DNA from: an archaeon
Lineage (GTDB): Archaea; Asgardarchaeota; Thorarchaeia; Thorarchaeales; Thorarchaeaceae
DNA: 64,000 nucleotides
Direction: 5' to 3'
NCBI GenBank assembly: GCA_024276825.1
Contig: JAJRWI010000033.1
Coordinates: 90,614-154,613, forward strand
This document shows positions 6,966 through 40,605 of this stretch, in pieces; within the stretch, counting starts at the first letter, position 1; the number at the start of each line of letters is the position of its first letter. Position numbers and translations under genes: made by a program. The notes beneath the pieces are model-generated. The model worked only from the letters and a program-made list of their open reading frames with translations. It did not search any database and had not been told where the DNA came from.

Positions 6966-7295
6966 CTACTCAATGTGAGTGCCCAGACGAATATTGTAGA
7001 CTTCAAACTCAAGTTGTGCAAGCTCATCTTGTAGGACTCTGTACTGACGTTCAAACTCCTCTGGTCCAATTATTCCTGCCTTTTTATCCATGACCAATGC
7101 CTTTAGCGCCTTCTGACGCTTTGCTATCTCCCTCTTCAACTCCTCCCACCTCTGCCTGTTAGCAGAAATGGATTCTCCCCAACTATGGCTTGAAGAAGTT
7201 GTCTGATCCAGTTTGTGAACAATCTCACCCAATGAATCACGTATCTGCTCTGGATCTCTTTCATGTGATGACTCATCATCAGTCAAAATAGACAC
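6966..7295 (-). CDS. Small coiled-coil protein with SHOCT-like C-terminal motif
   Basis: Heptad-rich; GIIGPEEFERQYRVL. Confidence 0.6.
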   Translation of the reverse strand: MSILTDDESSHERDPEQIRDSLGEIVHKLDQTTSSSHSWGESISANRQRWEELKREIAKRQKALKALVMDKKAGIIGPEEFERQYRVLQDELAQLEFEVYNIRLGTHIE

Positions 7296-7367
7296 CGTGC
7301 TCGGATTGTCTTGTTCTGCATATATGACTTGAGTTAAGGCATAGATGTTAAACTTTGCTGAAGCTTA

Positions 7368-8672
7368 CTATTCGACATCAGTGATGTGAACACTACATGA
7401 AACACATGGATCATAGGATCTGACAACTGTCTGAAGTTTTTGAGCAATCTCTTCCTTTTCAGTTCCCACATTCAATAAGGCGGCGGTCAACCTCTTCAGG
7501 TCCTCCTCCATCACGGGCAGAAACATTGCAGTTGGTGTGATGATGTCCGATTTGGTGATAACACCCTTTGAATCAACTCTTATAGTATATGCCAGCATTC
7601 CTCGTGGGGCCTCGGTGACCGCCACGCCTGACTGCTCTTTTCCAAGCTTGTATTCCACTCGACTCTCATCTCTCATGCTCTTTGCAAGATCAAATGCAAT
7701 GGTATGGGCTCTCCTAATCCAGTGAACCAATTCGACTGCCTGTGCAAAATTATTTGCCAATGGGTTATTGGGATCTAGAAAGTCACTATACATTTCAACA
7801 AGCTCTTTCGAACGTCCAGAGAGAAGATCACCGAAGAGTGTGACTCTTGACAGGGCTCCTGTCACAAATGTCCTGTCTTGATATCTACTGTGTTTGGCAA
7901 ATGAGTGGGGGATCACCAACTCCTGTATTCTCATCCGATATGCATGAGTCTTGAATTTGGTGCCATCTGTGGCCTCCACCGTGTCGCCAAAGACGCCGTA
8001 CTCTTCTCCAACGGGTCTAAGTGCAAGATGTAATCGTTCGCCTTCGACCTCAGACCAGTTTGGAAAGCTTACCAGTACTTCAAGGGCATCTTCTGCCATG
8101 TTGAACAGGCCTTTTAGCCGGGTGGCTAATCCCTCCATGTTCCTTCTACTGGGCAATCGTCCAAAGCCACCAATTAATACATTCTCTTGGTGAATATACC
8201 TTGACCCAATAACAGTCTGAATATCTGCTCCTATGTCCTTGAGAGCGATTGCTGTCTTTATGAGGTCCTTGTGCACTTTGCCCATGCTGAAGGCATCAGG
8301 AAATCCGAGAAAGTCTGGCAACGCAAGAAAGAACAGATGGAGTGCATGACTCTCAATATGATCTCCAAGATAGCAGAGCTCTCGTATCTTTGTAGTCTGC
8401 TCTGTTGGCTCAATTCTTAGGGCATTCTCTGCCGCAAGGACTGCAGTGATCTTATGAGCTGCAGCACAGAAGGAACACACCCTTGGAAAGACAGCAACTG
8501 CCTCCTCAACAGGTCTTCCAACAGTTATGGCCTCAAAGAACCGGGGTCCCTCAAAGATGTTCACATGGGCTATCTTAACATCGGCTCCATCAAAATGAAC
8601 CTCAATACCTGCTTTCCCCTCAATTCTTGCCACATGGTCAATATCTATTGATTGCACAATCTTGTCTGTCAA
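7368..8672 (-). CDS. hydA: Group 3b [NiFe]-hydrogenase (sulfhydrogenase) large subunit alpha
   Basis: ARIEGK, EGPRFFE, L1 PRVCSFCAAAH, L2 YDPCVSCSVH plus short cleavable tail. Confidence 0.96.
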   Translation of the reverse strand: MTDKIVQSIDIDHVARIEGKAGIEVHFDGADVKIAHVNIFEGPRFFEAITVGRPVEEAVAVFPRVCSFCAAAHKITAVLAAENALRIEPTEQTTKIRELCYLGDHIESHALHLFFLALPDFLGFPDAFSMGKVHKDLIKTAIALKDIGADIQTVIGSRYIHQENVLIGGFGRLPSRRNMEGLATRLKGLFNMAEDALEVLVSFPNWSEVEGERLHLALRPVGEEYGVFGDTVEATDGTKFKTHAYRMRIQELVIPHSFAKHSRYQDRTFVTGALSRVTLFGDLLSGRSKELVEMYSDFLDPNNPLANNFAQAVELVHWIRRAHTIAFDLAKSMRDESRVEYKLGKEQSGVAVTEAPRGMLAYTIRVDSKGVITKSDIITPTAMFLPVMEEDLKRLTAALLNVGTEKEEIAQKLQTVVRSYDPCVSCSVHITDVE

Positions 8673-9491
8673 TCACTTATCTCCTCCAAAGGCCTTCTTC
8701 AGCATTTTATCCAAGTTCTTGTTGTGTGCTGCAAAAATCTTTAGCCTGGCTCTTACAAACTCCTCTGTGAAGCCCCTCTTTTTGAAGACCGTGGCCAGTG
8801 CATCGAACCATGCTGTGTTGTGAGGGACAGGTCCTCTACATCCTATACATGGCACATTGAATGTAATACATCGCGCCCCACAACCTGCTGTTGTCACAGA
8901 TCCCAGACATGGCACATTAGACTCAATCAAGATACATGGGTTCCCTGTGGTCCTGCACTCTGCACAGACCGGATAGTCCTTCTGCTCTGGAAATGAACCA
9001 ACAAGGAATGTGGTGAGAAAGTACATAATTTCGTCCTCTTCGGGGGGACATCCCGGAAGAGAGTAATCGACATGGACGTACTGTGAGATTGGTGCTGCCT
9101 GCAGCCCGGGCATGTCAATCTTGTCATCACCATAGACCTCCTCATAGATCTCATCATAACTCAGGTTTCCCTCAGCCCAGCTCTGAACACCGCCATGGAC
9201 TGCACATGCTCCCATTGCTACCAGTGTTTTGCAGTTCTTCCTAATCTCCAATATCTCTTTGAGGTCCTTCTCAGTAGAAACAGAGCCCTCGACAAAGGCG
9301 ATATCGACCTCCTCATCCATTGTACTGGCGCTTGAAACCATATAGAAACATCTAATGTCAAATACATTAGCGACTTCAAGAATGTCACTAACAGTCGCCA
9401 TCATCAGCTGGCATCCATAACATGATGTCAGAGCATAGACACCAATCCTCGGTCTTTCTCGTACATCTGCCCTTGTGTCTTCCTTTATCAT
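8673..9491 (-). CDS. hydD: Group 3b hydrogenase small subunit delta
   Basis: LTSCYGC, VEGSV, GACAVHGG, PGCPP, CLGSVT.AGC..C...PCIGCRG. Confidence 0.95.
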   Translation of the reverse strand: MIKEDTRADVRERPRIGVYALTSCYGCQLMMATVSDILEVANVFDIRCFYMVSSASTMDEEVDIAFVEGSVSTEKDLKEILEIRKNCKTLVAMGACAVHGGVQSWAEGNLSYDEIYEEVYGDDKIDMPGLQAAPISQYVHVDYSLPGCPPEEDEIMYFLTTFLVGSFPEQKDYPVCAECRTTGNPCILIESNVPCLGSVTTAGCGARCITFNVPCIGCRGPVPHNTAWFDALATVFKKRGFTEEFVRARLKIFAAHNKNLDKMLKKAFGGDK

Positions 9492-10349
9492 TCATATCAA
9501 CCCCGGTACACTGATGATGTCATAGTAGTCGAACACCGGGCCGTCCTTGCAGGCATACTTCCATGAGGTCGCGGTTCCAATATTGCAATGCCCACATTTA
9601 CCGACACCACACTTCATTCGTCTTTCAAGGGTGACGAAGATATATCGCCGATCAAACCCCCTCTTGACAAGTTCTTCGAACATACCCCTGTACATTGCTG
9701 GAGGACCACACATTGCAACTGCACAATTATTCGGGTCCACATTCACCTTGTCCATGTGTGCTGTTGCACGTCCATGCAATCCGGGGAAGTCAGGGTCCCG
9801 TGTCACAGTCTGAATTATCTCTATGTTCTCTGCAGTTGCAATATCCTTCATGGCCTCTAACTCTTTCTGGAATAGCAACTCCTTGCCATACTTTGCACTA
9901 TTGACAATTGTGATGTTTCCGAACAACCAGCGATTGTCAAGTGCATATAGAAAGATGGATCGCAGAGGGGCCATTCCCAGTCCTGCGGCTACCAGCAGGA
10001 GGTCCTTGTTGTAAAACTGATCCATGGGAAATCCATTTCCATAGGGGCCTCTGACCCCGATGAGATCCCCTGGTTTGAGCTTGTGTATCTGGGAGGTGAC
10101 TCTTCCTGCATTCCTGATACAGAGCTCAAAGAAACCCACTCTTCTGGCTGAAGAGCATATTGAGATCGGAACCTCTCCAATCCCTAGTAATGATACCTGA
10201 ACAAACTGTCCAGGCCCGAACCTCCAGTCCCTTGCTCTTATCGGGTCCTCAAACCTAAAGAGGAACAGTTTGTCAATGTTCGACATATCATAGACTCGGA
10301 GAACACGGACTTGATGCAGTTCGTAAATGTTTGATTCCCCATTACTCAC
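9492..10349 (-). CDS. hydG: Sulfhydrogenase gamma subunit (FAD/NAD(P), 2Fe-2S)
   Basis: PGQF, GEVPISI, RGPYGNGF, GLGMAPLRS, CGPP, MKCGVGKCGHC, CKDGPVF. Confidence 0.95.
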   Translation of the reverse strand: MSNGESNIYELHQVRVLRVYDMSNIDKLFLFRFEDPIRARDWRFGPGQFVQVSLLGIGEVPISICSSARRVGFFELCIRNAGRVTSQIHKLKPGDLIGVRGPYGNGFPMDQFYNKDLLLVAAGLGMAPLRSIFLYALDNRWLFGNITIVNSAKYGKELLFQKELEAMKDIATAENIEIIQTVTRDPDFPGLHGRATAHMDKVNVDPNNCAVAMCGPPAMYRGMFEELVKRGFDRRYIFVTLERRMKCGVGKCGHCNIGTATSWKYACKDGPVFDYYDIISVPGLI

Positions 10350-11372
10350 CTAAGCTTCCCCCCTTACTTCCAGCAGATTCTGCTTGAAGTTAATCTCTGC
10401 GGGACAGAAATATGTACATCTTCCGCAACCCACACAATATGAAGTTGTGACTTCTTGACAATAGGCATTCTTGCAGTGGTACCTATTGAAGAAGCGGTCT
10501 TTCTTTGTGGGTCTAAAGTTATGACCACCCGCGACAAGACCGTGTGTTCTAAACTGGCACGAGTCCCAAAACCTCACACGTTCGCCAGTCTTACCATCAA
10601 GATTTGGGATATCTTTCACATCATAGCACCTGCAGGTGGGACAAGTCGTTGTGCAATTCCCACAACCCAGACACTTTTCACTCTCCCTCACATACATGGG
10701 ATGGTCCATGTTCCATTCGAGATGATAGCGTAAATCATCCCAGTTACCCTGTATCGAGAACATACTTCTTCTCTTGACCTCGAACTCTGCAATGTAATCT
10801 GTGTCCTCTTTAGAGATTTCCTCCTCAAACAGGTCAAGGTTTGGCTCTATGAGTTTATGTCCAGTGATACTTCTTACTCTGACTAGAAATCCATCAGATA
10901 TTTCATGGAAGAAGAGATCAAATCCTGCATCGACAATCTCTACACGCCTGACATTACAGAAACAATACTCGTCAGGAAGGCATGAGATTCCTATGATTAT
11001 GCCATTCTCACGATGCTTCTTATACATGGGGTCTGGCTGCTCATCAAGAAAGGTAGCATCAATAATCCTAAGCCCTACAATGTCGCAAGAATGCACTCCA
11101 AATAGAATCACTCGTTCAGACTGGATCTCTACGGGATACTCCTCTACCTCCTCCATATTGAATTTGAACATGGTTTCCTTCTCTGGATAGAAAAACCTAC
11201 GGGGTGGTCTTACTGTTCTGTTGTATTCGAATATGACGCTATGAACATCATCAACCTCCACAAAATCATAATACTTCTCTGAGATATTTTGAGGGGCATG
11301 CAATGTTCCCAGGTCCTTGAGACGTTCAAGGAACATGTAGGTGTTTTCCCGCGAAATCTTTACGTATCTCAA
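10350..11372 (-). CDS. hydB: Sulfhydrogenase beta subunit (4Fe-4S, AsrA-like)
   Basis: MRYVK..ENTY.FLERLKD N-terminus as recalled for Thermococcales SHI beta; CLGCGNCTTTCPTCRC, WDSC, CVGCGRC...CP. Confidence 0.95.
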   Translation of the reverse strand: MRYVKISRENTYMFLERLKDLGTLHAPQNISEKYYDFVEVDDVHSVIFEYNRTVRPPRRFFYPEKETMFKFNMEEVEEYPVEIQSERVILFGVHSCDIVGLRIIDATFLDEQPDPMYKKHRENGIIIGISCLPDEYCFCNVRRVEIVDAGFDLFFHEISDGFLVRVRSITGHKLIEPNLDLFEEEISKEDTDYIAEFEVKRRSMFSIQGNWDDLRYHLEWNMDHPMYVRESEKCLGCGNCTTTCPTCRCYDVKDIPNLDGKTGERVRFWDSCQFRTHGLVAGGHNFRPTKKDRFFNRYHCKNAYCQEVTTSYCVGCGRCTYFCPAEINFKQNLLEVRGEA

Positions 11373-11413
11373 TACAGAGCCTCCCGAACTAGCCTATTAG
11401 TATAGACTCGTCT

Positions 11414-11440
11414 TAATAAAAAGGAGTTTGATGGCACCAT
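11414..11440 (-). promoter_or_regulatory. hyd promoter: ATGGTGCCA-N10-TTTTATTA
   Basis: Same motif and spacing at 20150-20176 and 25644-25670. Confidence 0.6.
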
Positions 11441-11519
11441 TTCACCGTACGGGTCAGAAAGATTATAACCCAAAATGAATTTACGCCAGCGTTAGAACCA
11501 GAGCTTGGAGAACCTCTCA

Positions 11520-14500
11520 ATGGTCAGCGAAGCGGTGCAAAAACCTGATAGCAAATCAAAACCAACTGACGTTGTGATCATTGGAGCAGGAATGGCTGGT
11601 ATCAATGCGGCCATTGACCTTGCCGAAGGTGGTCATCACGCTCATCTCATTGAGCGTACGGTCAATATTGGTGGTAAGTATGTGGCAATTTACAAGGTCT
11701 TTCCAATGCTTGAGTGCTCAGCATGTGTTATGACCCCCCTCACCTCTTATGTTGGTAAGCATCCAAACATCACAATACACGCACTCTCCGAGGTTGTCAA
11801 GGTCTCAGGGAGCAAAGGCAACTTCACAGTGACCATTCGTAAGAGAGCCCGCTATGTCAATGAGGACAAATGTACGGGTTGTGGTCTCTGTGTCCGTGCC
11901 TGTCCTGTTGAAGTGCCGAATGAATATGATCGCGGTCTCTCATTGAGAAAAGCAATCTACTTTAACTTCCCTCAACAGATCCCTCTTATTGCGACCATTG
12001 ACAGAGATGCATGTATTGGATGCGGTACTTGTGCTGGGGTCTGCCCTCAAGATTGTATAAACTATGAGGACCAAGACAAAGAATATGAGATTAATGCTGG
12101 TTCTATAATTGTTGCAACTGGTTTTGACGAGTACGAGCCCTTGGACTATGCTGAGTATGGCTATGGCATTTTTCCAAATGTGGTCACCTCTCTACAATAT
12201 GACCGCCAGACTCATCCCACTGGCCCAACTGATGCTCATATGGTACGACCATCAGATGGTAAAGAACCCACAAGGATATTGTTTGTCAACTGCGTTGGAA
12301 GCAGAGATGTGCGAGAGGCAATCAATGGCTATAGCAAACATTGCAATCGCGTCTGTTGCTCCTTCGGGCTCAAGCTGGCACAAGTCACAAGAATGCACTA
12401 TCCAGAGGACCATTGCGAAATAATCTATACTTACATGGACATGCGGACAGCTGGAAAGGCATTGGAAGAGTTTCTCTGGGACTCTCAACACAACCAAGGC
12501 ATCAAGTTTATCCGCGGCAGGGTGGCAGAGGTTTACGAGGACCCTGACACACATGACCTCTCAGTAAAGTTAGAAGACACAGAAACTGGAGAGATAATGG
12601 AGATCAAAGATGTATCAATGATGGTTCTTAATGCAAGTTTCAGACCCGCCAAGGACCTTGATAATCTGGCAAAGATATTGAAGATAGATCTTGATGATAC
12701 TGGTTTTGTGAAGGAGTCGCACCCTAACGCACATGCTCTAGAAACCACAAGGCCTGGCATATTTGTTGCAGGTTGCGCTCATGGTCCAAAAGATGGCACT
12801 GACACAGTAAATGAAGGCAAGGGTGCCGCAATGGCAGCACATTCTATCCTGCCGATTCCACCACCTCCAGAACCAGAGGACATTCCGCCTGCGGAAATCG
12901 CTGATGAGCCAAGAGTTGGAGTCTTCATCTGTCATTGTGGAGGCATCATTGGAAATGTCATTGATTCCCCAGGATTGGCTGAATGGGCTAAAGGTCTTCC
13001 AAATGTGGTTTATTCCACAGATTACATCTTCATGTGCAGCGACCCAGGACAAGAACTCATAACGAAGGCAATTCGAGAGCATAAACTGAATAGGGTTGTT
13101 GTCGGATCATGTTCACCTCTTCAGCATGAGGCTACCTTTAGGCGTGCCCTTGAAGCAGCAGGCCTCTCACAGTATTATTTTGTGGGGCCCGCAGGGCTCA
13201 GAGAGCATCTCGCACTTGTGAATGCCAATGCACCCAAGGAAGAAAGGCAAAAGAAGGGTCAAGACCTTATTCGCAGTGCAGTTGCTAAAGCGATCAATAA
13301 TGAAATAGTTCCTGTCAAGTCATTGGAGGTGGTACGGACCACCATGGTTGTGGGTGGTGGGGTTTCAGGAATGACAGCGGCTCTTGACATTGCCAAAAAA
13401 GGCTTCAATGTGATCCTTGTTGAAAAGGAAGACCGATTGGGCGGTCGCTTGAATGATCTATACAACGTATTCCCCCAACTATTGAGCGCTCAAGAGATTG
13501 TTGAGGACTTGGTTTCACGGATTGAAAAGAGCAAGCGAATCAAAGTATTATTGAAAAGCAAAGTGGTTGCCAGAGATGGGTCTTATGGGAATTATAAGAT
13601 AACCGTGGAGAACACCCAAACTGGTGAACAGTTGACTTATGATATTGGGTCCATGGTGATAACAGTAGGGACCGATACATATGAGCCAAAACCTGGCGAA
13701 TACGGCTATGGTGAGGTGCCTGGAGTAATCACAACCCTTCAACTTGAACGAATGCTGCGGAATGGTGAGTTGAAAGAACCACCAAAGAACCCAGTGTTCA
13801 TCCATTGTGTTGGATCAAGACAAAATCCGGGTGAGGGCAATCGCTATTGTTCACGTGTGTGTTGTTCTGCTGTTATCGCAATGCAACATGAATTACGAGA
13901 GATGTTTCCAGACATCAGGATATTCTCCGCCTACAAAGAACACATCAGACCCTATGCCAATAAGATGGAAGAGATGTGGCGTGAAAACCGGCAGAATGGT
14001 GTGTCATACCTCCGCTGGATACGAGATCGCCCCGTGACCGTTAAGAAGGACCCCGATGGCGATGGTGCGATAGTGACGATTTATGATACTCTCTTACAGG
14101 AAACTCTCAGAATCAAGTCTAACATGGTCGTATTGGCGGTAGGCTTGGAAGCCCCTCATGATATTGATGAGATTGTCAGGGCTCTTGGAATCAACAGGGG
14201 TCAGGATGGTTTTTTGCTCGAGATGCATATGAAGTACCGCCCAGTGGACACCACAGTGCCTGGTGTGTTCTTGGGGGTGACCTATGCAAAGAATATTGCT
14301 GACTCGGTCAATCAGGCCCGTAGTGCTGCAAGTGCTGCCACAATTCCTCTTAATCTGGGCACTGTGGAGATCGAGCTTCTCACAGCCGAAGTCGATCAGG
14401 AACTATGTGTGGGTTGTGATCTATGTCACTACTCAGAGATATGTCCATATGATGCCATAAGCATGATAGAGATTGAACCTGGAGTGAAGAAGAGTGTGAC

Positions 14501-14624
14501 TGACGAGTTAAAGTGTGAGGGCTGTGGTGCATGCTGTGCAATCTGTCCTACAGGTGCCCGCGACTTGCGTTGGTGGCGTGAGAAGAGTCTTCTTGAAGAG
14601 ATAGAAGCCATGTTGAAGGAATAG
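11520..14624 (+). CDS. hdrA: Heterodisulfide reductase subunit A-like, double flavin-domain form (HdrA1)
   Basis: Two GxGxxG Rossmann folds, inserted 2x[4Fe-4S], two CVGSR..C..VCC motifs, internal RVGVFICHCG domain, C-terminal ferredoxin. Confidence 0.93.
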   Translation: MVSEAVQKPDSKSKPTDVVIIGAGMAGINAAIDLAEGGHHAHLIERTVNIGGKYVAIYKVFPMLECSACVMTPLTSYVGKHPNITIHALSEVVKVSGSKGNFTVTIRKRARYVNEDKCTGCGLCVRACPVEVPNEYDRGLSLRKAIYFNFPQQIPLIATIDRDACIGCGTCAGVCPQDCINYEDQDKEYEINAGSIIVATGFDEYEPLDYAEYGYGIFPNVVTSLQYDRQTHPTGPTDAHMVRPSDGKEPTRILFVNCVGSRDVREAINGYSKHCNRVCCSFGLKLAQVTRMHYPEDHCEIIYTYMDMRTAGKALEEFLWDSQHNQGIKFIRGRVAEVYEDPDTHDLSVKLEDTETGEIMEIKDVSMMVLNASFRPAKDLDNLAKILKIDLDDTGFVKESHPNAHALETTRPGIFVAGCAHGPKDGTDTVNEGKGAAMAAHSILPIPPPPEPEDIPPAEIADEPRVGVFICHCGGIIGNVIDSPGLAEWAKGLPNVVYSTDYIFMCSDPGQELITKAIREHKLNRVVVGSCSPLQHEATFRRALEAAGLSQYYFVGPAGLREHLALVNANAPKEERQKKGQDLIRSAVAKAINNEIVPVKSLEVVRTTMVVGGGVSGMTAALDIAKKGFNVILVEKEDRLGGRLNDLYNVFPQLLSAQEIVEDLVSRIEKSKRIKVLLKSKVVARDGSYGNYKITVENTQTGEQLTYDIGSMVITVGTDTYEPKPGEYGYGEVPGVITTLQLERMLRNGELKEPPKNPVFIHCVGSRQNPGEGNRYCSRVCCSAVIAMQHELREMFPDIRIFSAYKEHIRPYANKMEEMWRENRQNGVSYLRWIRDRPVTVKKDPDGDGAIVTIYDTLLQETLRIKSNMVVLAVGLEAPHDIDEIVRALGINRGQDGFLLEMHMKYRPVDTTVPGVFLGVTYAKNIADSVNQARSAASAATIPLNLGTVEIELLTAEVDQELCVGCDLCHYSEICPYDAISMIEIEPGVKKSVTDELKCEGCGACCAICPTGARDLRWWREKSLLEEIEAMLKE

Positions 14625-14633
14625 GTGTCATGT

Positions 14634-15200
14634 ATGGTCACACTTGATGGACTATATGCAGCTTGGCATGTGCTTAATGAACTGCTTGGTGAACTGAATG
14701 GCAATGGTGTATTCATCCCAAAGTTCACTTATGCAGACATGCGTAATGCCAAGATGATGATTGAATATCTCCGCTCATTCGATGAAGACATCCAGAGCTT
14801 TCAGAGGAGTGAAACTGATATCCGTGAAGAAATGGAAGGCAAAATGTCAAGTCTAAGAGAATCACTGATGGTCTGGGCTGAGGAGAACCAAGGACTCGAA
14901 TACAGGCAGAATTGGGAGCATCGCTTTGAGAAGGCGCTTCATGGCGAAGCTGTTGATATTGTCATTGAAGAACAAGTCCCAATATCTGATATCCCCCGAG
15001 AGAGGGATGTGGGCTTTTTCAGAATCAGACTACCTGATGAAATTCCTGTGGAGGTCATCTCAGAGATTGCCGAGGACTGCAGAGTAATAATCTCGCTTGA
15101 CGGCGAAAGACATCTACAAGTCAGCGGCAAGAAGGAATGTGTACGCGATGCCATGCAGCGTCTGGGCGAACTGTTCTATGGTGAGAGCCGATTGGACTGA
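14634..15200 (+). CDS. DUF2096-like protein (helical N-domain plus small C-terminal alpha/beta domain)
   Basis: W.VL.EL..EL...G..IP..Y.DMR.AK pattern recalled from methanogen DUF2096; follows the hdrA stop directly. Confidence 0.6.
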   Translation: MVTLDGLYAAWHVLNELLGELNGNGVFIPKFTYADMRNAKMMIEYLRSFDEDIQSFQRSETDIREEMEGKMSSLRESLMVWAEENQGLEYRQNWEHRFEKALHGEAVDIVIEEQVPISDIPRERDVGFFRIRLPDEIPVEVISEIAEDCRVIISLDGERHLQVSGKKECVRDAMQRLGELFYGESRLD

Positions 15201-15245
15201 GTTCTGACTTGTGATTATGATTGTAATACTTGCCTTGTCTTGACA

Positions 15246-16121
15246 TTAGATCCCAAGTATATCGCTTACAGGATCAAGAGAGATTCTGTCCAGTTCGAGC
15301 CCGAGCCGTTCTTCATCAAGTCCCATGGCAAGACCCAAGATCTGAGTCACAAACAAGGCAGGGAGTTCTAGCGATTCACCATTTTCATCAGTCAATCCAA
15401 GGGCCTGAACATCATACTGGGTATGACAGGCGGGACAGTTGGTCACAACACAGTTAGCACCTGAGGCTTTTGCATCGGCAAGCTTCTCCTTTAATATCCT
15501 CGTTGCCACATCCTCGCTGGCAATCAAGAGCGGTGAACCACAGCATCTGAGTTTCAGGTTCCAAGGAATACTCTTAGCCCCGGTCAACTCAATCAACTCA
15601 TCAACTTTGCTGGGCAACTCGGGATCATCGAACCCTGCAACTTTGGACGGCCTTAGGAGATGGCATCCAGGATGAAATGCAACCTTGAGCCCTTCAAGTG
15701 GTTTCACAATCTTTGAGGCAATCTCGTCCTTCAAGTCATAAAGGACCTCTACAAAGTGTCTTATCTTGGACTTGCCCGTATACTCGAGCCCAAGCTCTTT
15801 GAGCACCTCATTGACGGCCTTTCTCTGTTCCTCCTCGGTATGTAGAACATGATCGACATCCTTTAGTGAGCCAAAGCAGCCGTTGCATGGCGTAACAATG
15901 TCATGTCCTCTCTTCTCGGCGAGTGCAATGTTTCGACCAGACATTGAAAGCCAGCTGTACTCATCAATTGACTTGAGCACAACAGTACCACAGCAGGTTG
16001 CACCATCAAAGTCAAGAAGCTTTATGTCTAGAGCCTCTGCGACGGCTCGCATGCTGCTCTCATAATTATTGAATCGATTCGGAATCGCACATCCAAGAAA
16101 GACCTCGTATGTCTTGTTCAT
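15246..16121 (-). CDS. hdrB: Heterodisulfide reductase subunit B (copy 1)
   Basis: FLGC, TCCG, TPCNGC, HPGCH, RCCG, NCPAC. Confidence 0.93.
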   Translation of the reverse strand: MNKTYEVFLGCAIPNRFNNYESSMRAVAEALDIKLLDFDGATCCGTVVLKSIDEYSWLSMSGRNIALAEKRGHDIVTPCNGCFGSLKDVDHVLHTEEEQRKAVNEVLKELGLEYTGKSKIRHFVEVLYDLKDEIASKIVKPLEGLKVAFHPGCHLLRPSKVAGFDDPELPSKVDELIELTGAKSIPWNLKLRCCGSPLLIASEDVATRILKEKLADAKASGANCVVTNCPACHTQYDVQALGLTDENGESLELPALFVTQILGLAMGLDEERLGLELDRISLDPVSDILGI

Positions 16122-16640
16122 TTATTCCTCCTCCTGTAGCTTCAAGAGCCTAGTCTTGTCCAATAACTTCTTCACATCATTGATGTCAAACTCGGGAACA
16201 TCATCAAGTTCCAAGTCTTCACGTTCCCAGTCTGTGGGCTCATAGAGTCGTCCATTATTATACAAACCCTGAGCAGCAGCAACATAACCGGGTGGCGCAA
16301 TCCCTTTTCTATAGGCCATGTTCTTCAGACCAAAGAGAATGTCCGTAATGTCTATTCCCTGTGGACAACGCTCCTGACAAGTATAGCAAGTCGTGCATAA
16401 CCAGATCATGTCGGTTTCTAAGACCTCCTCAAGACCAAAGAGAAGCATTCTCATGACCTCATGAATCTGGATGTTCACTTTATCACTGACGGGGCATCCC
16501 CCACTGCACTTGGCGCATTGAAAACATGCAGTCAGGTCTTGCCCGCCGATGAGTTCGGACACCTTCTTTGTGAATTTGGCGTCCAGCTTTTTGAATGTCA
16601 TTCCCTCAAAAGATTTGAATCGGCCCCAACTCTCGGTCAT
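16122..16640 (-). CDS. hdrC: Heterodisulfide reductase subunit C (copy 1)
   Basis: CFQCAKCSGGCP, WLCTTCYTCQERCP. Confidence 0.93.
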   Translation of the reverse strand: MTESWGRFKSFEGMTFKKLDAKFTKKVSELIGGQDLTACFQCAKCSGGCPVSDKVNIQIHEVMRMLLFGLEEVLETDMIWLCTTCYTCQERCPQGIDITDILFGLKNMAYRKGIAPPGYVAAAQGLYNNGRLYEPTDWEREDLELDDVPEFDINDVKKLLDKTRLLKLQEEE

Positions 16641-16642
16641 GA

Positions 16643-19600
16643 TTATCTCCTCCTCGGCCTAAGTGGGCTTGGCCCAAGCTTCTCAACGAGTTCCGTGAGT
16701 TCTTTCACTTTCTCTGCATATATTGGCCCCTCACTTGCGCTAATATGTGTGAATTGAAGTCTCTCAGGTTCAAGTCCTGCTTTTTCAATAATCTTCTTGG
16801 CAATCATGTATCTTCTCTCGAATGCTATATTTCCATCAACATAATGGCAGTCTCCAACATGACACCCTGATATCCAGACCATATCAGCACCTAACCTGAA
16901 TGCCTCTAGAATATGAGTCACACTGACCCTTCCAGTACACATCACCCTGATATCTCTCACAGCGGGCGGCTGTTGAAGCCTTGCAACGCCCGCCGAGTCT
17001 GCGCCTGCATAGGTACACCAGTTGCACATTATCGTGAGAATGCGAGGTTCATTTGGTGGCAGGTCTTCAAGAGCACTCCTGACCTGAGCCATTATCTGAT
17101 CATCTGTGAAGTGCTTCATGGTGATTGCCCCCGCTGGACAACCTGCAGCGCATTTGCCGCAACCTTGGCAGAGAACCGGATTTGACACCGCATAATCATG
17201 AGATCCATCGCCTGGTACCACTGCAATCGCATTGTATGCACAGTTGATCTCACAGGTGCCACAGCCAACACATACCTCTGGATCAACCACTGAAACTATG
17301 GCCTCTGCCTTTCTCACACCTTTAACCAGCGGAATCAATGCGCGCATGGCAGCACCCTGTCCCTGTGCCATGGCCTCATTGATGCCTTTGGGTGCAGTAG
17401 CTGTACCTGCAACAAAGACACCATCTGTCTGAAAGTCAATGGGCCGAAGCTTGGGGTGGGCCTCCATGAAATATCCTGACATATTTAGTGAGAGTTTGAA
17501 CAACTCCGAGACCTCTTTGTTGGACTCGTGTGGGACCATTGCAGTTGCCAGAACTACATGATCCACATCTAGCTCAAGGGTTGCACCAAGCACCTGATCC
17601 TTAACAGTGACGGTCAGGGCTTTGTCTTTACCCTTCTTCACAACTGGTGGTTCATCCTTGTCAAACCTGATGAACACGGCTCCCTTTTTTCTGGCCTCCC
17701 TGTATTTGTCCTCAACATTGTAGGGGGCACGAAGGTCCCTGTACAAATGAAACACCCGTGAGTCAGGATATCTATCAAGAAGCTCTAGTGTATGCTCTAG
17801 GGCGACAGTACAGCAGACTGATGAGCACCATGTTCTTGAGCCCTCAAGGGACTCGTCCTCACGTGAGCCTGCACAATGAATCACAACGAATGTTTCACCG
17901 TTTTTAATCCCATCTTCCTCAATCACCCTCCTGTTGAACTCTGCCTCGGTCATCACCTCTGGGAGCTTCTTCAGGCCATAGAGCCCCTCCTCCTCAAGCA
18001 TGGTTGCACCAGTAGCAACAATAATGACTCCGATCTTTATCTCCTTCTCCTCATCATTGGTGTTGACTATGACATTGAAATCTCCGATGGCTCCTTTCGA
18101 TGAAACAACCTGGGAGTTCAGCATCAATTCGATGTTTGCATTACTCTCAATTTTCTTCTCATATTCACTGATCAACTCTTCAGTGGACCTGCTGTCAAAA
18201 TTAACAGTCTTCACCCTGTTGAGAAAGCCTCCGACCCTGCTCTCTCTCTCAACCAGATACACCTTGTAACCCTTATTGGCAATAATCTCTGCTGCGGTCA
18301 TCCCTGCGACTCCCGCACCAATTACCAGTGCCATGGGAGCTATCTCGGTGATCGCCTCCTCCTGAGGTTCAAGAATTGTCGCTCTGGCCACTGCCATTCT
18401 GACAAGGTCCATGGCCTTCTCTGTGGCCTCATCCTTTTCAGTCTGATGAATCCATGAGCAATGCTCGCGAATATTGGCAAGCTCAAACAGATACTTGTTC
18501 AGCCCTGCTTCCTCAATTGTGGTTCTGAACAGTGGTTCATGAGTCCTTGGAGTACATGATGCAACAACAACTCTGTTCAGCTTGTGTTCCTTTATGGCCT
18601 CCTTGATCACGACTTGCGAGTCTGAAGAGCATGAATAGAGCAGGTTCTCAGCATAGACCACATTGGGCAGAGTGCTTGCGTATTCGGTCACACGGGCGAC
18701 ATCCACAGTGCCAGCAATATTGATTCCGCATGAACAGATAATGACCCCTATCCTGGGCTCTCCTGCCATCAACTCCAAATCTTGGCCCTCAATTGTATCG
18801 GTCTTCGAGTATGCCTTTGGTGTAGCAATGTCCATGGCAGCCAGTGCCGCAGCAGCACTGCCCTGAGCAACAGAATCAGGAATGTCCTTGGGTGCATTGC
18901 ATGTTCCACACATATGCACACCCTCCACACCGGTTTCAGTAAGGAGAAGACCTCCATTCTGTGCTGGAATGAAGCCATATTTGTCAGTCTTTATTCCAAT
19001 GCTCTCAAACAGCTTGCTGTTGTCCGTTGGAATCATTGCAGGACATAGAACAACAAGGTCATACCTGTCAATCAGGACCTCGTGTTCCTTTGCATCAACA
19101 TGCTTGATGATAAGGTCATGGGTGGTAGGGTCCTCATGAATCTCACTTGGGAGCCCCTTGACATAGTTTATGCCATACTCTGTCTCTCCGCGTACAATAA
19201 ACTCCTCGAAGCCCTTACCAAAGACTCTCATATCATTGAATAAAATGTCAATGTGCACCTCTGGAGTGTGCTCCTTTGTGATTATTGCCTCCTTTGTGGC
19301 ATAAGTACAGCAGATCTTAGAGCAATATGCGCAGTGATTCACGTCCCTACTCCCAACGCACTGAACGAATGCTATACGATGAGGCTCGCGACCATCAGAG
19401 GGTCTCATGACCACGCCGCTGGTTGGTCCGCTTGCAGACACCATTCTCTCATATTCCAGTGATGACACAACATTTGGGAATCTACCATAACCATACTCTG
19501 GAACTGTCGCGGGATCTATCAACTCAAACCCCGTTGCAATAATTATTGAACCCGCATTGACCTCGATGGTCTCATCAGTGAATGCCTCAAAGTCAATCGC

Positions 19601-20110
19601 TTTTGCCTTGCAAGTCTTAACACACATCATACACTGGATGCAATTTTCAATGTCAATTGTTGCTACATTGGGCACTGCTTGTGGGAATGGGATATATGCC
19701 GCCTTTCTCATCTTTAGACCCATGTCATACTCGTTTGGGACCTCAATAGGACATATCCGCTCACAGTCCCCACAACCTGTGCACTTGTCAGGATCTACCC
19801 TTCTGTTCTTTTTGAGAATCTTGACATTGAAGTTTCCACGCTTGCCAGAAACCTCGATGACCTCTGAGTATGACATGATCTCAATGTTTGGGTGTCGTGA
19901 ACAATCAACCATCCATGGCCCCTGAATACACATTGCACAATCAAGCGTGGGGAACGTCTTATCTAGTTGTGACATGTGTCCACCAATTGATGGTTGCCTC
20001 TCAACCAGATAGACCTTGACTCCCATTTCCGCCAGATCTAATGCAGCTCGCATTCCCGAGATGCCAGCTCCGACAATCATAACGGGCTTTGTTTCTGACT
20101 CAGCCATCAC
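16643..20110 (-). CDS. hdrA: Double-domain HdrA fused to C-terminal MvhD (HdrA2-MvhD)
   Basis: KTFPTLDCAMC, ANIREHCSW, two Rossmann folds, C-terminal CNWCTYAGAD..RVMCTGRV..GCHVGDCHY. Confidence 0.95.
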   Translation of the reverse strand: MMAESETKPVMIVGAGISGMRAALDLAEMGVKVYLVERQPSIGGHMSQLDKTFPTLDCAMCIQGPWMVDCSRHPNIEIMSYSEVIEVSGKRGNFNVKILKKNRRVDPDKCTGCGDCERICPIEVPNEYDMGLKMRKAAYIPFPQAVPNVATIDIENCIQCMMCVKTCKAKAIDFEAFTDETIEVNAGSIIIATGFELIDPATVPEYGYGRFPNVVSSLEYERMVSASGPTSGVVMRPSDGREPHRIAFVQCVGSRDVNHCAYCSKICCTYATKEAIITKEHTPEVHIDILFNDMRVFGKGFEEFIVRGETEYGINYVKGLPSEIHEDPTTHDLIIKHVDAKEHEVLIDRYDLVVLCPAMIPTDNSKLFESIGIKTDKYGFIPAQNGGLLLTETGVEGVHMCGTCNAPKDIPDSVAQGSAAAALAAMDIATPKAYSKTDTIEGQDLELMAGEPRIGVIICSCGINIAGTVDVARVTEYASTLPNVVYAENLLYSCSSDSQVVIKEAIKEHKLNRVVVASCTPRTHEPLFRTTIEEAGLNKYLFELANIREHCSWIHQTEKDEATEKAMDLVRMAVARATILEPQEEAITEIAPMALVIGAGVAGMTAAEIIANKGYKVYLVERESRVGGFLNRVKTVNFDSRSTEELISEYEKKIESNANIELMLNSQVVSSKGAIGDFNVIVNTNDEEKEIKIGVIIVATGATMLEEEGLYGLKKLPEVMTEAEFNRRVIEEDGIKNGETFVVIHCAGSREDESLEGSRTWCSSVCCTVALEHTLELLDRYPDSRVFHLYRDLRAPYNVEDKYREARKKGAVFIRFDKDEPPVVKKGKDKALTVTVKDQVLGATLELDVDHVVLATAMVPHESNKEVSELFKLSLNMSGYFMEAHPKLRPIDFQTDGVFVAGTATAPKGINEAMAQGQGAAMRALIPLVKGVRKAEAIVSVVDPEVCVGCGTCEINCAYNAIAVVPGDGSHDYAVSNPVLCQGCGKCAAGCPAGAITMKHFTDDQIMAQVRSALEDLPPNEPRILTIMCNWCTYAGADSAGVARLQQPPAVRDIRVMCTGRVSVTHILEAFRLGADMVWISGCHVGDCHYVDGNIAFERRYMIAKKIIEKAGLEPERLQFTHISASEGPIYAEKVKELTELVEKLGPSPLRPRRR

Positions 20111-20149: not shown

Positions 20150-20176
20150 TGATAAAATGTTTATTGTTGGCACCAT
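20150..20176 (-). promoter_or_regulatory. hdrA-mvhD promoter: ATGGTGCCA-N10-TTTTATCA
   Basis: Identical 9-mer and spacing to the hyd promoter. Confidence 0.6.
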
Positions 20177-24145: not shown

Positions 24146-25060
24146 CTATGTCTTCAGGCCAAGCCGTTCCCAGTTGGGTTCGCTCTTCCTCTGCATGTAC
24201 TGCAGATGTGTTGACAGTCCGAACTCCTCAGGCTCATGACCAAAAGCAAGTGCAAGTAACTCCACAACATGCAATATATCAAACTGGTAATCCAGATCAA
24301 AATGCTTCTTTATCTCTACCTGTCCAAGGTCCAGTTGTAACTCACAGAATGGGCATGGTGTCACAATAATATCTGCGCCACCTGCCTCCAATAGACTATT
24401 GAACTTCTGTTTTGTGAAGTCCAACGCGACCTTTACATCTGCAGTCCTCACAGCGCCTCCTGCACCACAGCAGATGAGTTCATCCTTATATGGAACATAT
24501 GTTGCACCTGAAGTCTCGCATAACTCTCTGAAAATGTGAGGTCTCTCAGAATTGTCCTTCTGCTTTAAAGCCGCTGGACGCATCCAGTGGCAGCCTGGGT
24601 GCAATGCCATTCTTACGCCGGTCAGTGGTCGTGTGACATGCTTACGAATCTTCTCAAGACCCGCAATTGAATAGAGGGCGTCAACATAATGAGTGACCTC
24701 TATACTCCCCTTGAACTCACGATTGATCTCAGCAAGATTATCATTAACAGTCTTCATCAATTCCTCATCATGCTTCAACTCGTGATTGGCATCCCAGAGA
24801 CTTGCAAAGCAACCGTTGCATCCAGTGGTAATCGGGTGCCCTCCTGCTTCTGCGATTGTCAGGTTTCTAGCGGCAATTGTTGCCCATGTGACCCTGTCAA
24901 AAGAACCAAACACTCCTGGTGCGGGACAGCAACTTGCACCCTCCATGTCAAGAAGTTCTAAACCAAGATCTTCAAACACAATACGAGCGGCCTTCTCAAT
25001 GCTAGGATATCTATGTGGAATGATGCAACCAAGAAAATGGTAGAACTTGTGCTTTGCCAT
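24146..25060 (-). CDS. hdrB: HdrB (copy 2, methanogen-type CCPAPG)
   Basis: FLGCIIPHRYP, SCCPAPG, CNGC, HPGCH, CCGAGG, CPFC. Confidence 0.95.
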   Translation of the reverse strand: MAKHKFYHFLGCIIPHRYPSIEKAARIVFEDLGLELLDMEGASCCPAPGVFGSFDRVTWATIAARNLTIAEAGGHPITTGCNGCFASLWDANHELKHDEELMKTVNDNLAEINREFKGSIEVTHYVDALYSIAGLEKIRKHVTRPLTGVRMALHPGCHWMRPAALKQKDNSERPHIFRELCETSGATYVPYKDELICCGAGGAVRTADVKVALDFTKQKFNSLLEAGGADIIVTPCPFCELQLDLGQVEIKKHFDLDYQFDILHVVELLALAFGHEPEEFGLSTHLQYMQRKSEPNWERLGLKT

Positions 25061-25062
25061 AT

Positions 25063-25605
25063 CTATTCCTCCTTTGGTGCGATGAGCTTGTCGAAGCCGC
25101 TCTTCTTGGCCAACTTCCTTATCTCCTCAATTGTCTCATGATATCTGCTTGCATTTGGTGGTACTGGCTCAAGACCGACTTTTTCTCTAAGTTTCTGCCA
25201 TGACTCTTTATCAAGTGGTACTGCATGACCGGCTTCAAGGACTTTCAGTGCTACACTCTGGTGTGGCTTTAACATATGGCCCTCTGCAACAGCAATGTTT
25301 CTGATGGCCTTGATAACATCCGTAGGCTTGACATCCTGTGGACATCTGTCAGTGCAGGTATAACAAGTAGTACAGTACCAGAGTTCTGGGGCTGATATAC
25401 ACTCTTCCTTCAGACCAAGTAATGCCTTTCGAATGATGAGTCTGACAAGATAGTTGGTTCTGGCACCAGCAGGACAACTCCCGCTACAGGTCCCACACTG
25501 ATAACACGATTGAATATTGGGACCACCAACACGTTTTATCATCTCCACAAATTCCCTGTCTGTGGAGTCTATATCTATTGTAGACCTGTCTTCTGCACTT
25601 GCCAC
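25063..25605 (-). CDS. hdrC: HdrC (copy 2)
   Basis: CYQCGTCSGSCP, LWYCTTCYTCTDRCP, GHAVP; likely GTG start at 25605. Confidence 0.93.
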   Translation of the reverse strand: MASAEDRSTIDIDSTDREFVEMIKRVGGPNIQSCYQCGTCSGSCPAGARTNYLVRLIIRKALLGLKEECISAPELWYCTTCYTCTDRCPQDVKPTDVIKAIRNIAVAEGHMLKPHQSVALKVLEAGHAVPLDKESWQKLREKVGLEPVPPNASRYHETIEEIRKLAKKSGFDKLIAPKEE

Positions 25606-25643
25606 GATGTCCACCGACTGTGGATTGCACACAGAATTTCAGC

Positions 25644-25670
25644 CTTAAATTCATTGCCAATTGGCACAAT
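25644..25670 (-). promoter_or_regulatory. hdrC2 promoter: ATTGTGCCA-N10-AATTTAAG, overlapping palindrome TGCCAATTGGCA
   Basis: 8/9 match to the ATGGTGCCA box with similar spacing; 12-bp palindrome at 25655-25666. Confidence 0.5.
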
Positions 25671-25701
25671 ATTCATCAGAACAAATTACCCTAATTATTC
25701 A

Positions 25702-26772
25702 ATGAGATGTGCATTTCATCCCAACCGCCTTACATCGCGAGCAATTGGTGTATGCTCTGAATGCCTGAGTTCCAATCCGTCCAGCATGAATCAATCTCTT
25801 GAAACTCACAGGCGACTGAGAGCACGACTGGGCCTTGTTGAAACTATACATGGTCATGGACAGATTGTATGCTCCGAATGCGGAAACCATTGCAGACTCA
25901 ATAATGGTGATGTTGGCTTCTGTAATCTGCGAATCGCTAAGAATGGCATAATTGAGGAACGCTTCAAGGAAAAGGCAATAGTTTCATATTACTATGATCC
26001 GCTGCCTACAAACTGTGTGGCTGACTGGGTGTGTCCATGTAAGACCGATGGACTACTTGATAGCAACCATCGTTTCAATAACTTGGCTGTGTTTTATGGT
26101 TCCTGTAATTCTGACTGTCTGTTTTGTCAGAATGCGAGTTATCGTGACATGATGGCTAAAGGGAGGTCTCTCATGACCCCTCATGCACTTGCAGAGGCTG
26201 CTAATGAAAGGACTGCCTGTGTCTGCTTCTTTGGTGGGGATCCATCCTGTAATGCTGCCCATTCGATTGCAGTGTCCGAGTTCCTCATTCACCATGGAAT
26301 AAAGGTCTGTTATGAAACCAATGGAATAATCTCACGAAAATGGTTAAAGATAATGGCAGATGTAGTCATCAGGAGTGGAGGCACATTCAAGATTGATCTG
26401 AAGGCTTATTCTTCAAACATATACAAGGCATTGACAGGAGTTTCAAATACTGTTGTCTTGAATAATTTTCGAAGACTTGCAAAGATTGGTAGGGGACTGA
26501 ATCATACATTTCTGGTGGCAAGCATTCTACTAATACCCGAGTATGTGTCTGTTGATGAGGTGCAGCGTCTCTGTGAGTTCATTGCATACTGCGACCCTAC
26601 AATTCCAACTGCACTACTCGGTTTTGCTCCTCATCTTGCCATGTCCGATTTACCACGGACTAGTCGTGCACATGCATTCAGAGCCAAGGAGGTTGCTGAA
26701 GAGGCTGGACTTGAAAATGTGCGTATTGGCAACCTTGCTCTTCTGTCGAAGGCGGACTATGTGTTTGAATAG
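25702..26772 (+). CDS. Radical SAM enzyme (PflA/AmmeMemoRadiSam-like, COG1180)
   Basis: CNSDCLFCQN, FFGGDP, ETNG, IDLKA; Cys-rich N-terminus; likely start ATG 25702. Confidence 0.88.
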   Translation: MRCAFHPNRLTSRAIGVCSECLSSNPSSMNQSLETHRRLRARLGLVETIHGHGQIVCSECGNHCRLNNGDVGFCNLRIAKNGIIEERFKEKAIVSYYYDPLPTNCVADWVCPCKTDGLLDSNHRFNNLAVFYGSCNSDCLFCQNASYRDMMAKGRSLMTPHALAEAANERTACVCFFGGDPSCNAAHSIAVSEFLIHHGIKVCYETNGIISRKWLKIMADVVIRSGGTFKIDLKAYSSNIYKALTGVSNTVVLNNFRRLAKIGRGLNHTFLVASILLIPEYVSVDEVQRLCEFIAYCDPTIPTALLGFAPHLAMSDLPRTSRAHAFRAKEVAEEAGLENVRIGNLALLSKADYVFE

Positions 26773-26856
26773 AAACAAATTAATTCAAACCACTCATGCT
26801 ACATCCACCAGTCTTATATTTGAATCTAAGTGGCAACCAGTCATAGAGGTCTTTTG

Positions 26857-27408
26857 ATGAGCGACCCGATAATCCGTGAAATAATAGACTCTGAGGAAAT
26901 AGACCCCGAGTTTGTAGACCTGCTGGTTGAGGCTGGAGCTGATCGCATACGGACATGCATTCAATGTGGTACATGTTCAAGTGTCTGCCCAAGTGGCAGG
27001 CGCACTGCGTTCAGAACAAGGGAGCTTATGCGAAAGGCCATTCTGGGGCTGAAGGACGAGGTATTGTCTAGTCCTGATCTCTGGCTCTGTGCCACATGTC
27101 TGACCTGTCTTGAGAGGTGTCCTAGACAGATCAAGACTACAGATGCAATTATCATTTTAAGAAACATTGCTGTTGCACAGGGCTATATGCTTCCACAACA
27201 TCGAAAGGCATCGATGAAGCTACTTGAAACAGGACATGCAGTTCCGATTGATGAGGCAAATATGAAGAAGCGGAAAGACTTGGGCCTAAAGGAAATACCG
27301 CCCACAGTACACTCGCATAAGAAGTCACTCAAAGAAGTTCAGAAGATAATGAAAAAGACAGGCTTCAAGGCTCTCATTGAGGGTACAAGTAAGGGGGCTC
27401 AACAATGA
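26857..27408 (+). CDS. hdrC: HdrC (copy 3)
   Basis: CIQCGTCSSVCPSGRRT, LWLCATCLTCLERCPR, TGHAVP, PPTVH. Confidence 0.95.
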   Translation: MSDPIIREIIDSEEIDPEFVDLLVEAGADRIRTCIQCGTCSSVCPSGRRTAFRTRELMRKAILGLKDEVLSSPDLWLCATCLTCLERCPRQIKTTDAIIILRNIAVAQGYMLPQHRKASMKLLETGHAVPIDEANMKKRKDLGLKEIPPTVHSHKKSLKEVQKIMKKTGFKALIEGTSKGAQQ

Positions 27409-28301
27409 CTGAAACGCAGCGATATTCCTTCTTCCTTGGGTGCGTGATGCCCAACCGTTTTCCAAACCTTGAGAAGTCCATTCGTGTTGTGCTTCCCAAA
27501 CTCGGGATTGAGTTGGAGGACTTGAAGGGGGCAAGCTGTTGTCCTGCACCTGGTGTCATCAGGTCGTTCAGTGAACCGACATGGCTTGCACTGGCCTCCC
27601 GAAATCTAGCGCTTGCTGAGAAGGCAGGTCTTGACATAGTCACTGGATGCAACGGGTGCTATGGGACATTCAAAGAGGCATTACATGTCGTCCATGAACA
27701 CCCTCAACGGCTCAAGGAAGTCCAACATATACTTGGCGACATTGGCCTTAATTACGAGGCAAAGACTGATGCCAAACATATAATTGAGATAATCTTTGAG
27801 ATTGGCCCTGAAAAGATCAAGGAGCTTGTTGTTCGACCACTGACTGGCCTGAAGATTGCAGTTCATTATGGATGCCATCTACTCAAGCCCAGTGTTCTTA
27901 GGCCATGGAAAAAGACACAACGTCCTACTTTTCTTGATGAACTTGTTGAGGCAACTGGAGCAACAAGCATACGCTATAAAGACAAGTTCTTGTGCTGTGG
28001 TGCTGGCGGTGGGGTGCGTGGGAGCAATGTACCAGTTTCAATCGATATTGCAAGGGAGAAGCTTGACAATGCCATTAATGCTCAGGCTGATGCAATACTC
28101 AATGTCTGTTCATTCTGTCATTTGCAATATGAAACCGCCCAAGTACAAATAAACAAAGAGATAGGTGAGATGAAATATAGGCTGCCAGTGATATACTACA
28201 CTCAACTACTTGGACTAGCGTTAGGACTTGAACCTGATGAACTCGGTCTAAACAAGCATCTCATTAGTGTTGACTCAGTATTGAACAAAGTGCTTGGCTA
28301 A
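27405..28301 (+). CDS. hdrB: HdrB (copy 3, methanogen-type)
   Basis: FFLGCVMPNRFP, SCCPAPG, HYGCH, CCGAGGGVR, CSFC. Confidence 0.95.
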   Translation: MTETQRYSFFLGCVMPNRFPNLEKSIRVVLPKLGIELEDLKGASCCPAPGVIRSFSEPTWLALASRNLALAEKAGLDIVTGCNGCYGTFKEALHVVHEHPQRLKEVQHILGDIGLNYEAKTDAKHIIEIIFEIGPEKIKELVVRPLTGLKIAVHYGCHLLKPSVLRPWKKTQRPTFLDELVEATGATSIRYKDKFLCCGAGGGVRGSNVPVSIDIAREKLDNAINAQADAILNVCSFCHLQYETAQVQINKEIGEMKYRLPVIYYTQLLGLALGLEPDELGLNKHLISVDSVLNKVLG

Positions 28302-38309: not shown

Positions 38310-38310
38310 T

Positions 38311-39383: not shown

Positions 39384-39384
39384 T

Positions 39385-39726: not shown

Positions 39727-39812
39727 CACCCATGTATGCTGCCGACGCCCGTCCGCACTGCAATCCATTAATATGCTTGTTGATAGTGACCATCAGATTA
39801 TCATCTATCAGA

Positions 39813-40595: not shown

Positions 40596-40605
40596 TGAAT
40601 CCCCT

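Follow-up and report, generated by a model that had tools for sequence, protein, structure and literature searches.

A sulfhydrogenase I-type [NiFe] hydrogenase operon beside the double-HdrA locus of Thorarchaeota: probably two enzyme systems that are neighbours by descent

The window analyzed here is a 64,000-nucleotide (nt) stretch of the genome of an Asgard archaeon of the family Thorarchaeaceae (GenBank assembly GCA_024276825.1, contig JAJRWI010000033.1, positions 90,614 to 154,613). It contains a four-gene hydrogenase operon, hydBGDA, next to genes for subunits of heterodisulfide reductase (Hdr), two of which encode fused, double HdrA proteins (Table 1). Syntrophy models of eukaryote origins hinge on the handling of hydrogen and low-potential electrons in Asgard archaea, and a group 3b hydrogenase wired directly to HdrA, if it existed here, would open a new path by which H2 or NADPH could reduce ferredoxin. 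From a comparison with about 150 related loci we conclude that the neighbours are probably two separate enzyme systems, placed side by side by descent: an accessory hydrogenase of the sulfhydrogenase I (SHI) type and a universal double-HdrA/HdrBC locus.

Table 1. Coordinates of the features at the hydrogenase-Hdr locus, as positions in the window (aa, amino acids; ORF, open reading frame).
Feature	Position	Strand	Length	Description
Small coiled-coil ORF	6966-7295	minus	109 aa	Far edge of the variable slot; no Pfam match
hydA	7368-8672	minus	434 aa	[NiFe] large subunit, SHI-type group 3b; Pfam NiFeSe_Hases
hydD	8673-9491	minus	272 aa	Small (delta) subunit; Pfam Oxidored_q6
hydG	9492-10349	minus	285 aa	FAD/NAD(P)-binding and [2Fe-2S] gamma subunit; Pfam FAD_binding_6, NAD_binding_1, DHODB_Fe-S_bind
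hydB	10350-11372	minus	340 aa	Iron-sulfur beta subunit, AsrA/Fer4_22 type; Pfam Fer4_22
hydB-hdrA1 intergenic region	11373-11504		132 nt	Divergent
hdrA1	11505-14624	plus	1039 aa	Fused double HdrA without MvhD
DUF2096 gene	14625-15200	plus	191 aa	Pfam DUF2096_N and KH_DUF2096_C
hdrB	15246-16121	minus	291 aa	Pfam CCG, two stretches; TIGR03288 1e-84
hdrC	16122-16640	minus	172 aa	Pfam Fer4_8; TIGR03290 1.3e-30
hdrA2-mvhD	16643-20110	minus	1155 aa	FlpD/MvhD domain at residues 1024-1146; NCBIfam hetero_SS_HdrA2 1138 bits
Second ATGGTGCCA copy	20168-20176	minus		66 nt upstream of the hdrA2-mvhD start

The hydrogenase genes are contiguous on one strand, in the order beta, gamma, delta, alpha, and are divergent from hdrA1. 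A first-pass annotation of this DNA had described the same arrangement with a spacer of about 150 nt, which we correct to 132 nt. Every gene it listed was found where it had been mapped; omitted from its list was the DUF2096 gene, which begins where hdrA1 stops and separates that gene from the converging hdrB. The genes that flank the locus are archaeal housekeeping genes, for the exosome, SBDS, the proteasome alpha subunit and a Znu-type ABC transporter.

Judged by its sequence, HydBGDA is a plain SHI-type group 3b [NiFe] hydrogenase. HydA aligns end to end with the alpha subunit of Pyrococcus furiosus SHI (PDB 9NEZ_D, E 4.5e-123), and both its N-terminal CxxC and its C-terminal DPCxxCxxH nickel-iron ligand motifs are conserved in this alignment; its top NCBIfam match is sulfhyd_HydA (1e-135), with 453 bits against 142 bits for VhuA. 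HydG matches 9NEZ_C over its whole length (E 2e-135), passes the NCBIfam model PRK08345 (419 bits, cutoff 395) and retains all of its FAD, NAD(P) and [2Fe-2S] domains. HydB matches 9NEZ_B across residues 1-338 (E 1e-141), is 61% identical to the SHI beta subunit of Pyrococcus horikoshii and has kept all 16 of the subfamily's invariant cysteines. HydD was assigned by a profile match, not by a chain search, to the SHI delta profile sulfhyd_HydD (5.5e-100, residues 12-268). The NCBIfam equivalog cutoffs for HydA, HydB, HydD and HydG, whose models are tuned to Thermococcales, were not reached (453, 505, 334 and 470 bits against 880, 750, 500 and 650).

Compared with SHI of P. furiosus and other Thermococcales (PDB 9NEZ/9NF0), the Thorarchaeota enzyme shares the four genes and their order, and it has A, B and G chains that match end to end and intact Ni-Fe, iron-sulfur, FAD and NAD(P) motifs. 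It differs in its mesophile-type host, in scoring below the Thermococcales cutoffs and in having hdr neighbours, which are lacking at the loci of Thermococci. H2 would be split at the Ni-Fe site of HydA, and HydD and HydB would relay the electrons through their clusters to HydG, whose [2Fe-2S] cluster and FAD would deliver them to NADP+, or the same path would be taken in reverse; NADP(H) is the predicted partner, and the direction of flow may well be either.

HdrA1 and HdrA2 are both fused doubles that share one layout of complementary halves, as seen when the halves are aligned with 9SFI_A and with a canonical HdrA of 654 aa that this genome also encodes. The first half comprises a thioredoxin-reductase-like FAD domain, an inserted ferredoxin domain and the Cys194/Cys197 pair, whose equivalents form an ECSAC motif in the N half of HdrA1. 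Both double HdrA proteins contain a single N-terminal cluster domain, a single Cys197-bearing half and two ferredoxin domains, the one inserted and the other C-terminal; the Cys197-bearing half, which is without the N-terminal domain, comes first. The C terminus of HdrA2 carries MvhD, with a full-length match to FlpD (E 4.5e-43). Direct binding of NAD(P)H by the second flavin half was considered and set aside, since all four HdrA halves keep a CVGSR...CC cluster motif at the nucleotide-domain position.

Fused double HdrA proteins have already been published: the complementary pseudo-heterodimer design is known from ANME-1, a lineage of archaea that are anaerobic methanotrophs (ANME), and from Moorella (PMC9012536), and double HdrA proteins, often with a C-terminal MvhD fusion, from Thorarchaeota (PMC11237513). 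The proteins of our locus resemble ANME-1 HdrA3/4, the MetFV-HdrABC-MvhD system of Moorella thermoacetica and the double HdrA of Thorarchaeota and Lokiarchaeota in their complementary halves and in having MvhD at the C terminus of one protein (PMC9012536; PMC11237513). In the HdrA3/4 proteins of ANME, however, the halves stand in the opposite order to those of HdrA1 and HdrA2.

Much of this inventory is shared with the MvhAGD-HdrABC and VhuAGD-Hdr complexes of hydrogenotrophic methanogens (PDB 5ODC, 9SW2, 9SFI): the flavin and iron-sulfur domains of HdrA, the MvhD [2Fe-2S] adaptor, an HdrB with two CCG domains and the dicluster domain of HdrC are all present at the locus. In contrast to these complexes, the neighbouring hydrogenase belongs to group 3b and not to group 3c, HdrA is a fused, asymmetric double, and MvhD is fused on. 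The first-pass annotation had proposed that the group 3b enzyme is coupled to the double HdrA proteins instead of MvhAG, and had noted that mvhA and mvhG are missing from the window. Their absence holds for the window and for this locus only, because vhuAGD-type genes sit elsewhere in the genome, which measures 2.94 Mb and is 98% complete. VhuA-, VhuG- and VhuD-like genes, the real group 3c enzyme of this organism, are embedded in a second large hdr cluster on another contig (C15), together with other hdrA genes. Genome-wide there are about 12 HdrA paralogs, about 8 HdrB, about 8 HdrC and 9 MvhD domains, and a second, divergent hydBGDA lies on contig C2; HydB homologs are confined to the two hyd operons.

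The other known system that the locus recalls is the NADH-dependent FlxABCD-HdrABC of Desulfovibrio. HydG belongs to the FlxA family and HydB to that of FlxB/C, and MvhD corresponds to FlxD. Flx, in contrast, lacks hydrogenase subunits and runs in the same direction as hdr, whereas here the beta and gamma subunits are encoded within a complete SHI-type operon, and the nearest relatives of the hydrogenase that contains them are stand-alone enzymes.

As the first-pass annotation had it, the parts list is complete: a group 3b hydrogenase, HydG and HydB of the FlxA and FlxB families, a fused MvhD domain, two double HdrA proteins and HdrBC all lie within 12.7 kb. One could imagine HydBGDA attached to the MvhD domain of HdrA2, and possibly to HdrA1 too, as an optional input for H2 or NAD(P)H. 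Electrons from H2 would then reach the bifurcating flavin and be distributed to ferredoxin and to a disulfide at HdrBC, as in an Flx-Hdr-like complex with a [NiFe] head. That the MvhD domain has retained its full-length FlpD match is in keeping with such a supercomplex; the NAD(P) module of HydG, which is intact, would be superfluous for a dedicated wire from H2 to MvhD. For the reasons given below we regard the supercomplex as improbable. Its linkage and parts are as had been claimed; against it stand the single origin of the linkage, the patchy occurrence of the hydrogenase, the lack of linkage outside Thorarchaeota and a promoter box that is not conserved.

We surveyed the 87 genomes of the order and, for counts within the family, its 85 genomes. 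HydB orthologs (65-75% identity) occur in about 25 of the 87, and likewise in about 25 of the 85. In 22 of 25 hydrogenase-bearing genomes, hydBGDA is divergent to hdrA1-DUF2096, and the other three end at a contig edge; the linkage is therefore found in every hydrogenase-bearing relative in which it can be verified (22/22), as a supercomplex would lead one to expect. The gap between hydB and hdrA1, however, ranges from 0.13 to 9.2 kb, and the wider gaps hold unrelated genes, for a helicase, a GNAT protein, a nucleotidyltransferase and a citrate-type (CitMHS) transporter.

The linkage also has to be seen against its surroundings. The genes of the block follow the order rrp41-rrp4-sbds-psmA, an unnamed ORF, znu, the small ORF, hdrA1-DUF2096 and hdrB-hdrC-hdrA2-mvhD, and the exosome, proteasome and Znu genes, which are functionally unrelated, are as syntenic in it as the hydrogenase. 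We checked this order in 20 hydrogenase-less genomes, reading it as far as the fetched stretch reaches, and most of them keep parts of it. In such relatives the small ORF is divergent to hdrA1 at a distance of 135-173 nt (L042, L049, L053), or lies 1-11 kb off with cargo in between, and a Mem_trans transporter borders the slot in genomes of either kind, hydrogenase-bearing or not. Because the block is syntenic across the family and the cargo of the slot varies, the hydrogenase cassette is the occupant of a variable slot in a region whose gene order is conserved irrespective of function. From adjacency inside so strongly syntenic a block, a complex should not be inferred.

Two further features of the slot may be recorded here. 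At four loci (L028, L030, L034, L035) the Mem_trans gene lies between hydA and the small ORF; it is missing in the window, where these two are separated by a 72-nt spacer (ORF and spacer, 6966-7367). Immediately upstream of hdrA1 and on its strand, some loci (L037:9376-10503, L044:9988-11079, L040:9810-10913, L018:5656-6756) encode a possibly homologous protein of about 365-375 aa, in genomes with and without the hydrogenase. It does not occur in the window, and the two copies scanned, those of L037 and L018, had no Pfam match.

In a tree of concatenated HydBGDA sequences, the Thorarchaeota copies form one clade against those of other Asgard archaea (99% SH-aLRT), inside which the genera are monophyletic. 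The HdrA1 tree tracks the genus assignment and requires at least four changes of hydrogenase presence. These trees fit, as the simplest history, one early insertion beside hdrA1, followed by vertical descent and repeated loss. With a single insertion and vertical descent, the synteny within the family counts as one observation and not as 22, and it is an observation from a block that links unrelated genes equally. The synteny that the first-pass annotation had put forward for checking is therefore real, and its weight for a complex is small.

Outside the family the linkage is not conserved. The closest hydBGDA operons, in four other Asgard genomes (62-65% identity), are free of hdr genes for 12 kb on the upstream and 4 kb on the downstream side. 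Across GTDB species genomes, a scan yielded 80 loci, 17 of which belong to the Thorarchaeota family by gene content (HydB 68-74% identical). The other 63, from Heimdallarchaeum, Hermodarchaeota, Bathyarchaeia, Thermoplasmatota, Thermococci and one Coprothermobacteraceae, had no match to hdrA, hdrB, hdrC, MvhD or DUF2096 (E threshold 1e-8) over stretches of up to 9 kb. These searches reached up to 9-12 kb upstream and less far downstream, and many contigs end sooner. In all, the same hydrogenase is found without hdr linkage at about 65 loci outside Thorarchaeota, which speaks against a supercomplex.

Conversely, the Hdr genes do not depend on the hydrogenase for their presence. hdrA1 (75-82% identity, full length) and hdrA2-mvhD occur in 84 of the 85 family genomes, so that a universal Hdr locus stands against a patchy hydrogenase. 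Group 3c VhuA-like genes are found in 62 of the 85, including nearly all that carry the group 3b enzyme. We had considered that the group 3b enzyme of this type (type 1) and the group 3c enzyme might be alternative heads of the Hdr system, and rejected this because the two co-occur in most type-1 genomes. Three genomes that are 92-93% complete (G043, G045, G060) have neither type of group 3b enzyme nor a group 3c enzyme, their only match to PF00374 being below threshold, and they retain hdrA1 and hdrA2-mvhD; the universal double-HdrA system therefore needs no soluble [NiFe] hydrogenase. These distributions argue that the double-HdrA system of Thorarchaeota is independent of soluble hydrogenases, and its electron donor should therefore be sought elsewhere.

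A hydrogenase could nevertheless be fitted to HdrA in those lineages that have kept it. If the SHI-type enzyme were a detachable input head on the MvhD domain of HdrA2, oxidation of H2, NADPH or both would be coupled to flavin-based bifurcation onto ferredoxin and a disulfide, in a hybrid of Mvh-Hdr and Flx-Hdr within a non-methanogen. We looked for traces of such docking in two ways. No clade-specific indels that might mark a docking surface were seen in HydA, HydB, HydD or HydG between 10 Thorarchaeota and 10 relatives without hdr linkage, and among longer HydB homologs there were no (Rosetta-stone) fusions of HydB with MvhD or HdrA, only fusions of HydB with HydG. Both are weak tests, which count modestly against any docked arrangement, and we consider a detachable head a rather doubtful proposition.

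The first-pass annotation had further pointed to a promoter box shared by the two sets of genes. The box, the 9-mer ATGGTGCCA, is real in this genome: one copy lies on the minus strand at 11432-11440, 68 nt upstream of the hydB start and between the TATA elements of the two divergent promoters (hydB TATA at about 11412-11421; hdrA1 promoter, AGAAAGATTATAAC, at about 11457-11470), and the second at the matching offset upstream of hdrA2-mvhD (Table 1). A variant, ATTGTGCCA, is found upstream of hdrC2 (25662-25670), and the hdrA1 promoter is without the box as such. Since chance alone gives a common 8-mer in about 23% of shuffled sequence pairs, the box is notable only by its matching position.

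Such a box can be taken as support for a supercomplex, or for a module in which hydrogenase and Hdr are switched on together without forming a stable complex and communicate by diffusible carriers only, balancing H2 and NADPH against the ferredoxin and thiol/disulfide pools. The latter is suggested by the closeness of the divergent promoters with the box between their TATA elements, by the further copy and variant upstream of hdrA2-mvhD and hdrC2, and by a one-mismatch copy upstream of hdrA2-mvhD in a genome of the same genus (G010). This copy is the only one found upstream of hdrA2-mvhD in relatives, and it belongs to a genome without the hydrogenase. In 19 relatives no exact copy precedes hydB, other genera have either no box or a different one, and in four other genomes the hydB and hdrA2-mvhD promoters share no positional 8-mer. 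By contrast, the genera share a strongly conserved hdrA1 promoter element, GACAGAAAGATTATATCG, which is unchanged whether the hydrogenase is present or not and whatever lies upstream (regions L017-L056). Co-regulation of hydB and hdr is thus possible in this genome and would not be a conserved feature; as an explanation of the locus, a co-regulated module seems to us unlikely, though worth keeping in mind.

We return to the reading that we favour, that of two separate systems. The HydBGDA of Thorarchaeota would be a bidirectional, NADP(H)-linked accessory cassette, gained once and lost repeatedly, with its slot between the transporter/small-ORF pair and hdrA1. hdrA1-DUF2096 and hdrA2-mvhD/hdrC/hdrB would encode a family-universal, flavin-based disulfide reductase, built on an asymmetric, self-dimerising double HdrA and able to work without an SHI-type hydrogenase. 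The two would be connected only through shared redox pools (H2, NADPH), possibly with local co-regulation; a dedicated supercomplex is not expected, and a stable Hyd-Hdr complex is probably not formed.

Several points weigh against this interpretation. HydG and HydB belong to families whose Flx members feed HdrA via the MvhD protein (FlxABCD-HdrABC). The tight divergent arrangement (130-560 nt) has been retained in at least four genera, and of 106 genome-wide matches to ATKGTGCCA, none but the boxes at hydB and hdrA2-mvhD has a promoter-like position. Finally, a group 3b hydrogenase cluster is reported to lie beside hdrA, independently, in Syntropharchaeia (f__YL-1/YL-2), where it was suggested that it could pass electrons to HdrA (PMC12533140, 2025). 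The idea of coupling a group 3b hydrogenase to HdrA has thus already been published, from the same kind of inference in another phylum, and this independent proposal also favours a supercomplex.

The DUF2096 gene lies directly 3' of hdrA1 in every Thorarchaeota genome examined and is a single-copy gene in 81 of the 85 family genomes. Homologs in other Asgard families (23-31% identity; L142-L146) are located away from hdr genes, for which reason we rejected a role of DUF2096 as a general HdrA accessory. One of them (L146) adjoins psmA-sbds, that is, the exosome/proteasome neighbourhood that also flanks the hyd-hdr locus. As the other Asgard homologs are not near hdr and this copy lies by psmA-sbds, the tie between DUF2096 and hdrA1 may be historical rather than functional. 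In the papers searched, nothing was found on DUF2096 or on the structure of SHI.

Other redox genes occur in the window. Two more hdrC-hdrB pairs flank a radical SAM gene at 24146-28301, and these pairs are syntenic at two related loci (L031 and L035, 72-84% identity). A group-4/Nuo-like membrane hydrogenase module (NuoH, NuoD-like [NiFe] large subunit, NuoC, NuoB; 35992-39383) adjoins a 2-hydroxyacyl-CoA dehydratase and its activator ATPase, the whole region spanning 35992-43007. In several relatives, an HdrA paralog of about 1020 aa adjoins the VhuA gene and was read through one in-frame stop, TAG in five cases (G029:C47, G052:C14, G037:C156, G003:C5, G039:C368) and TGA in one (G005:C24); these could be tandem in-frame hdrA genes instead of a fusion, or, for TGA, the stop could encode selenocysteine.

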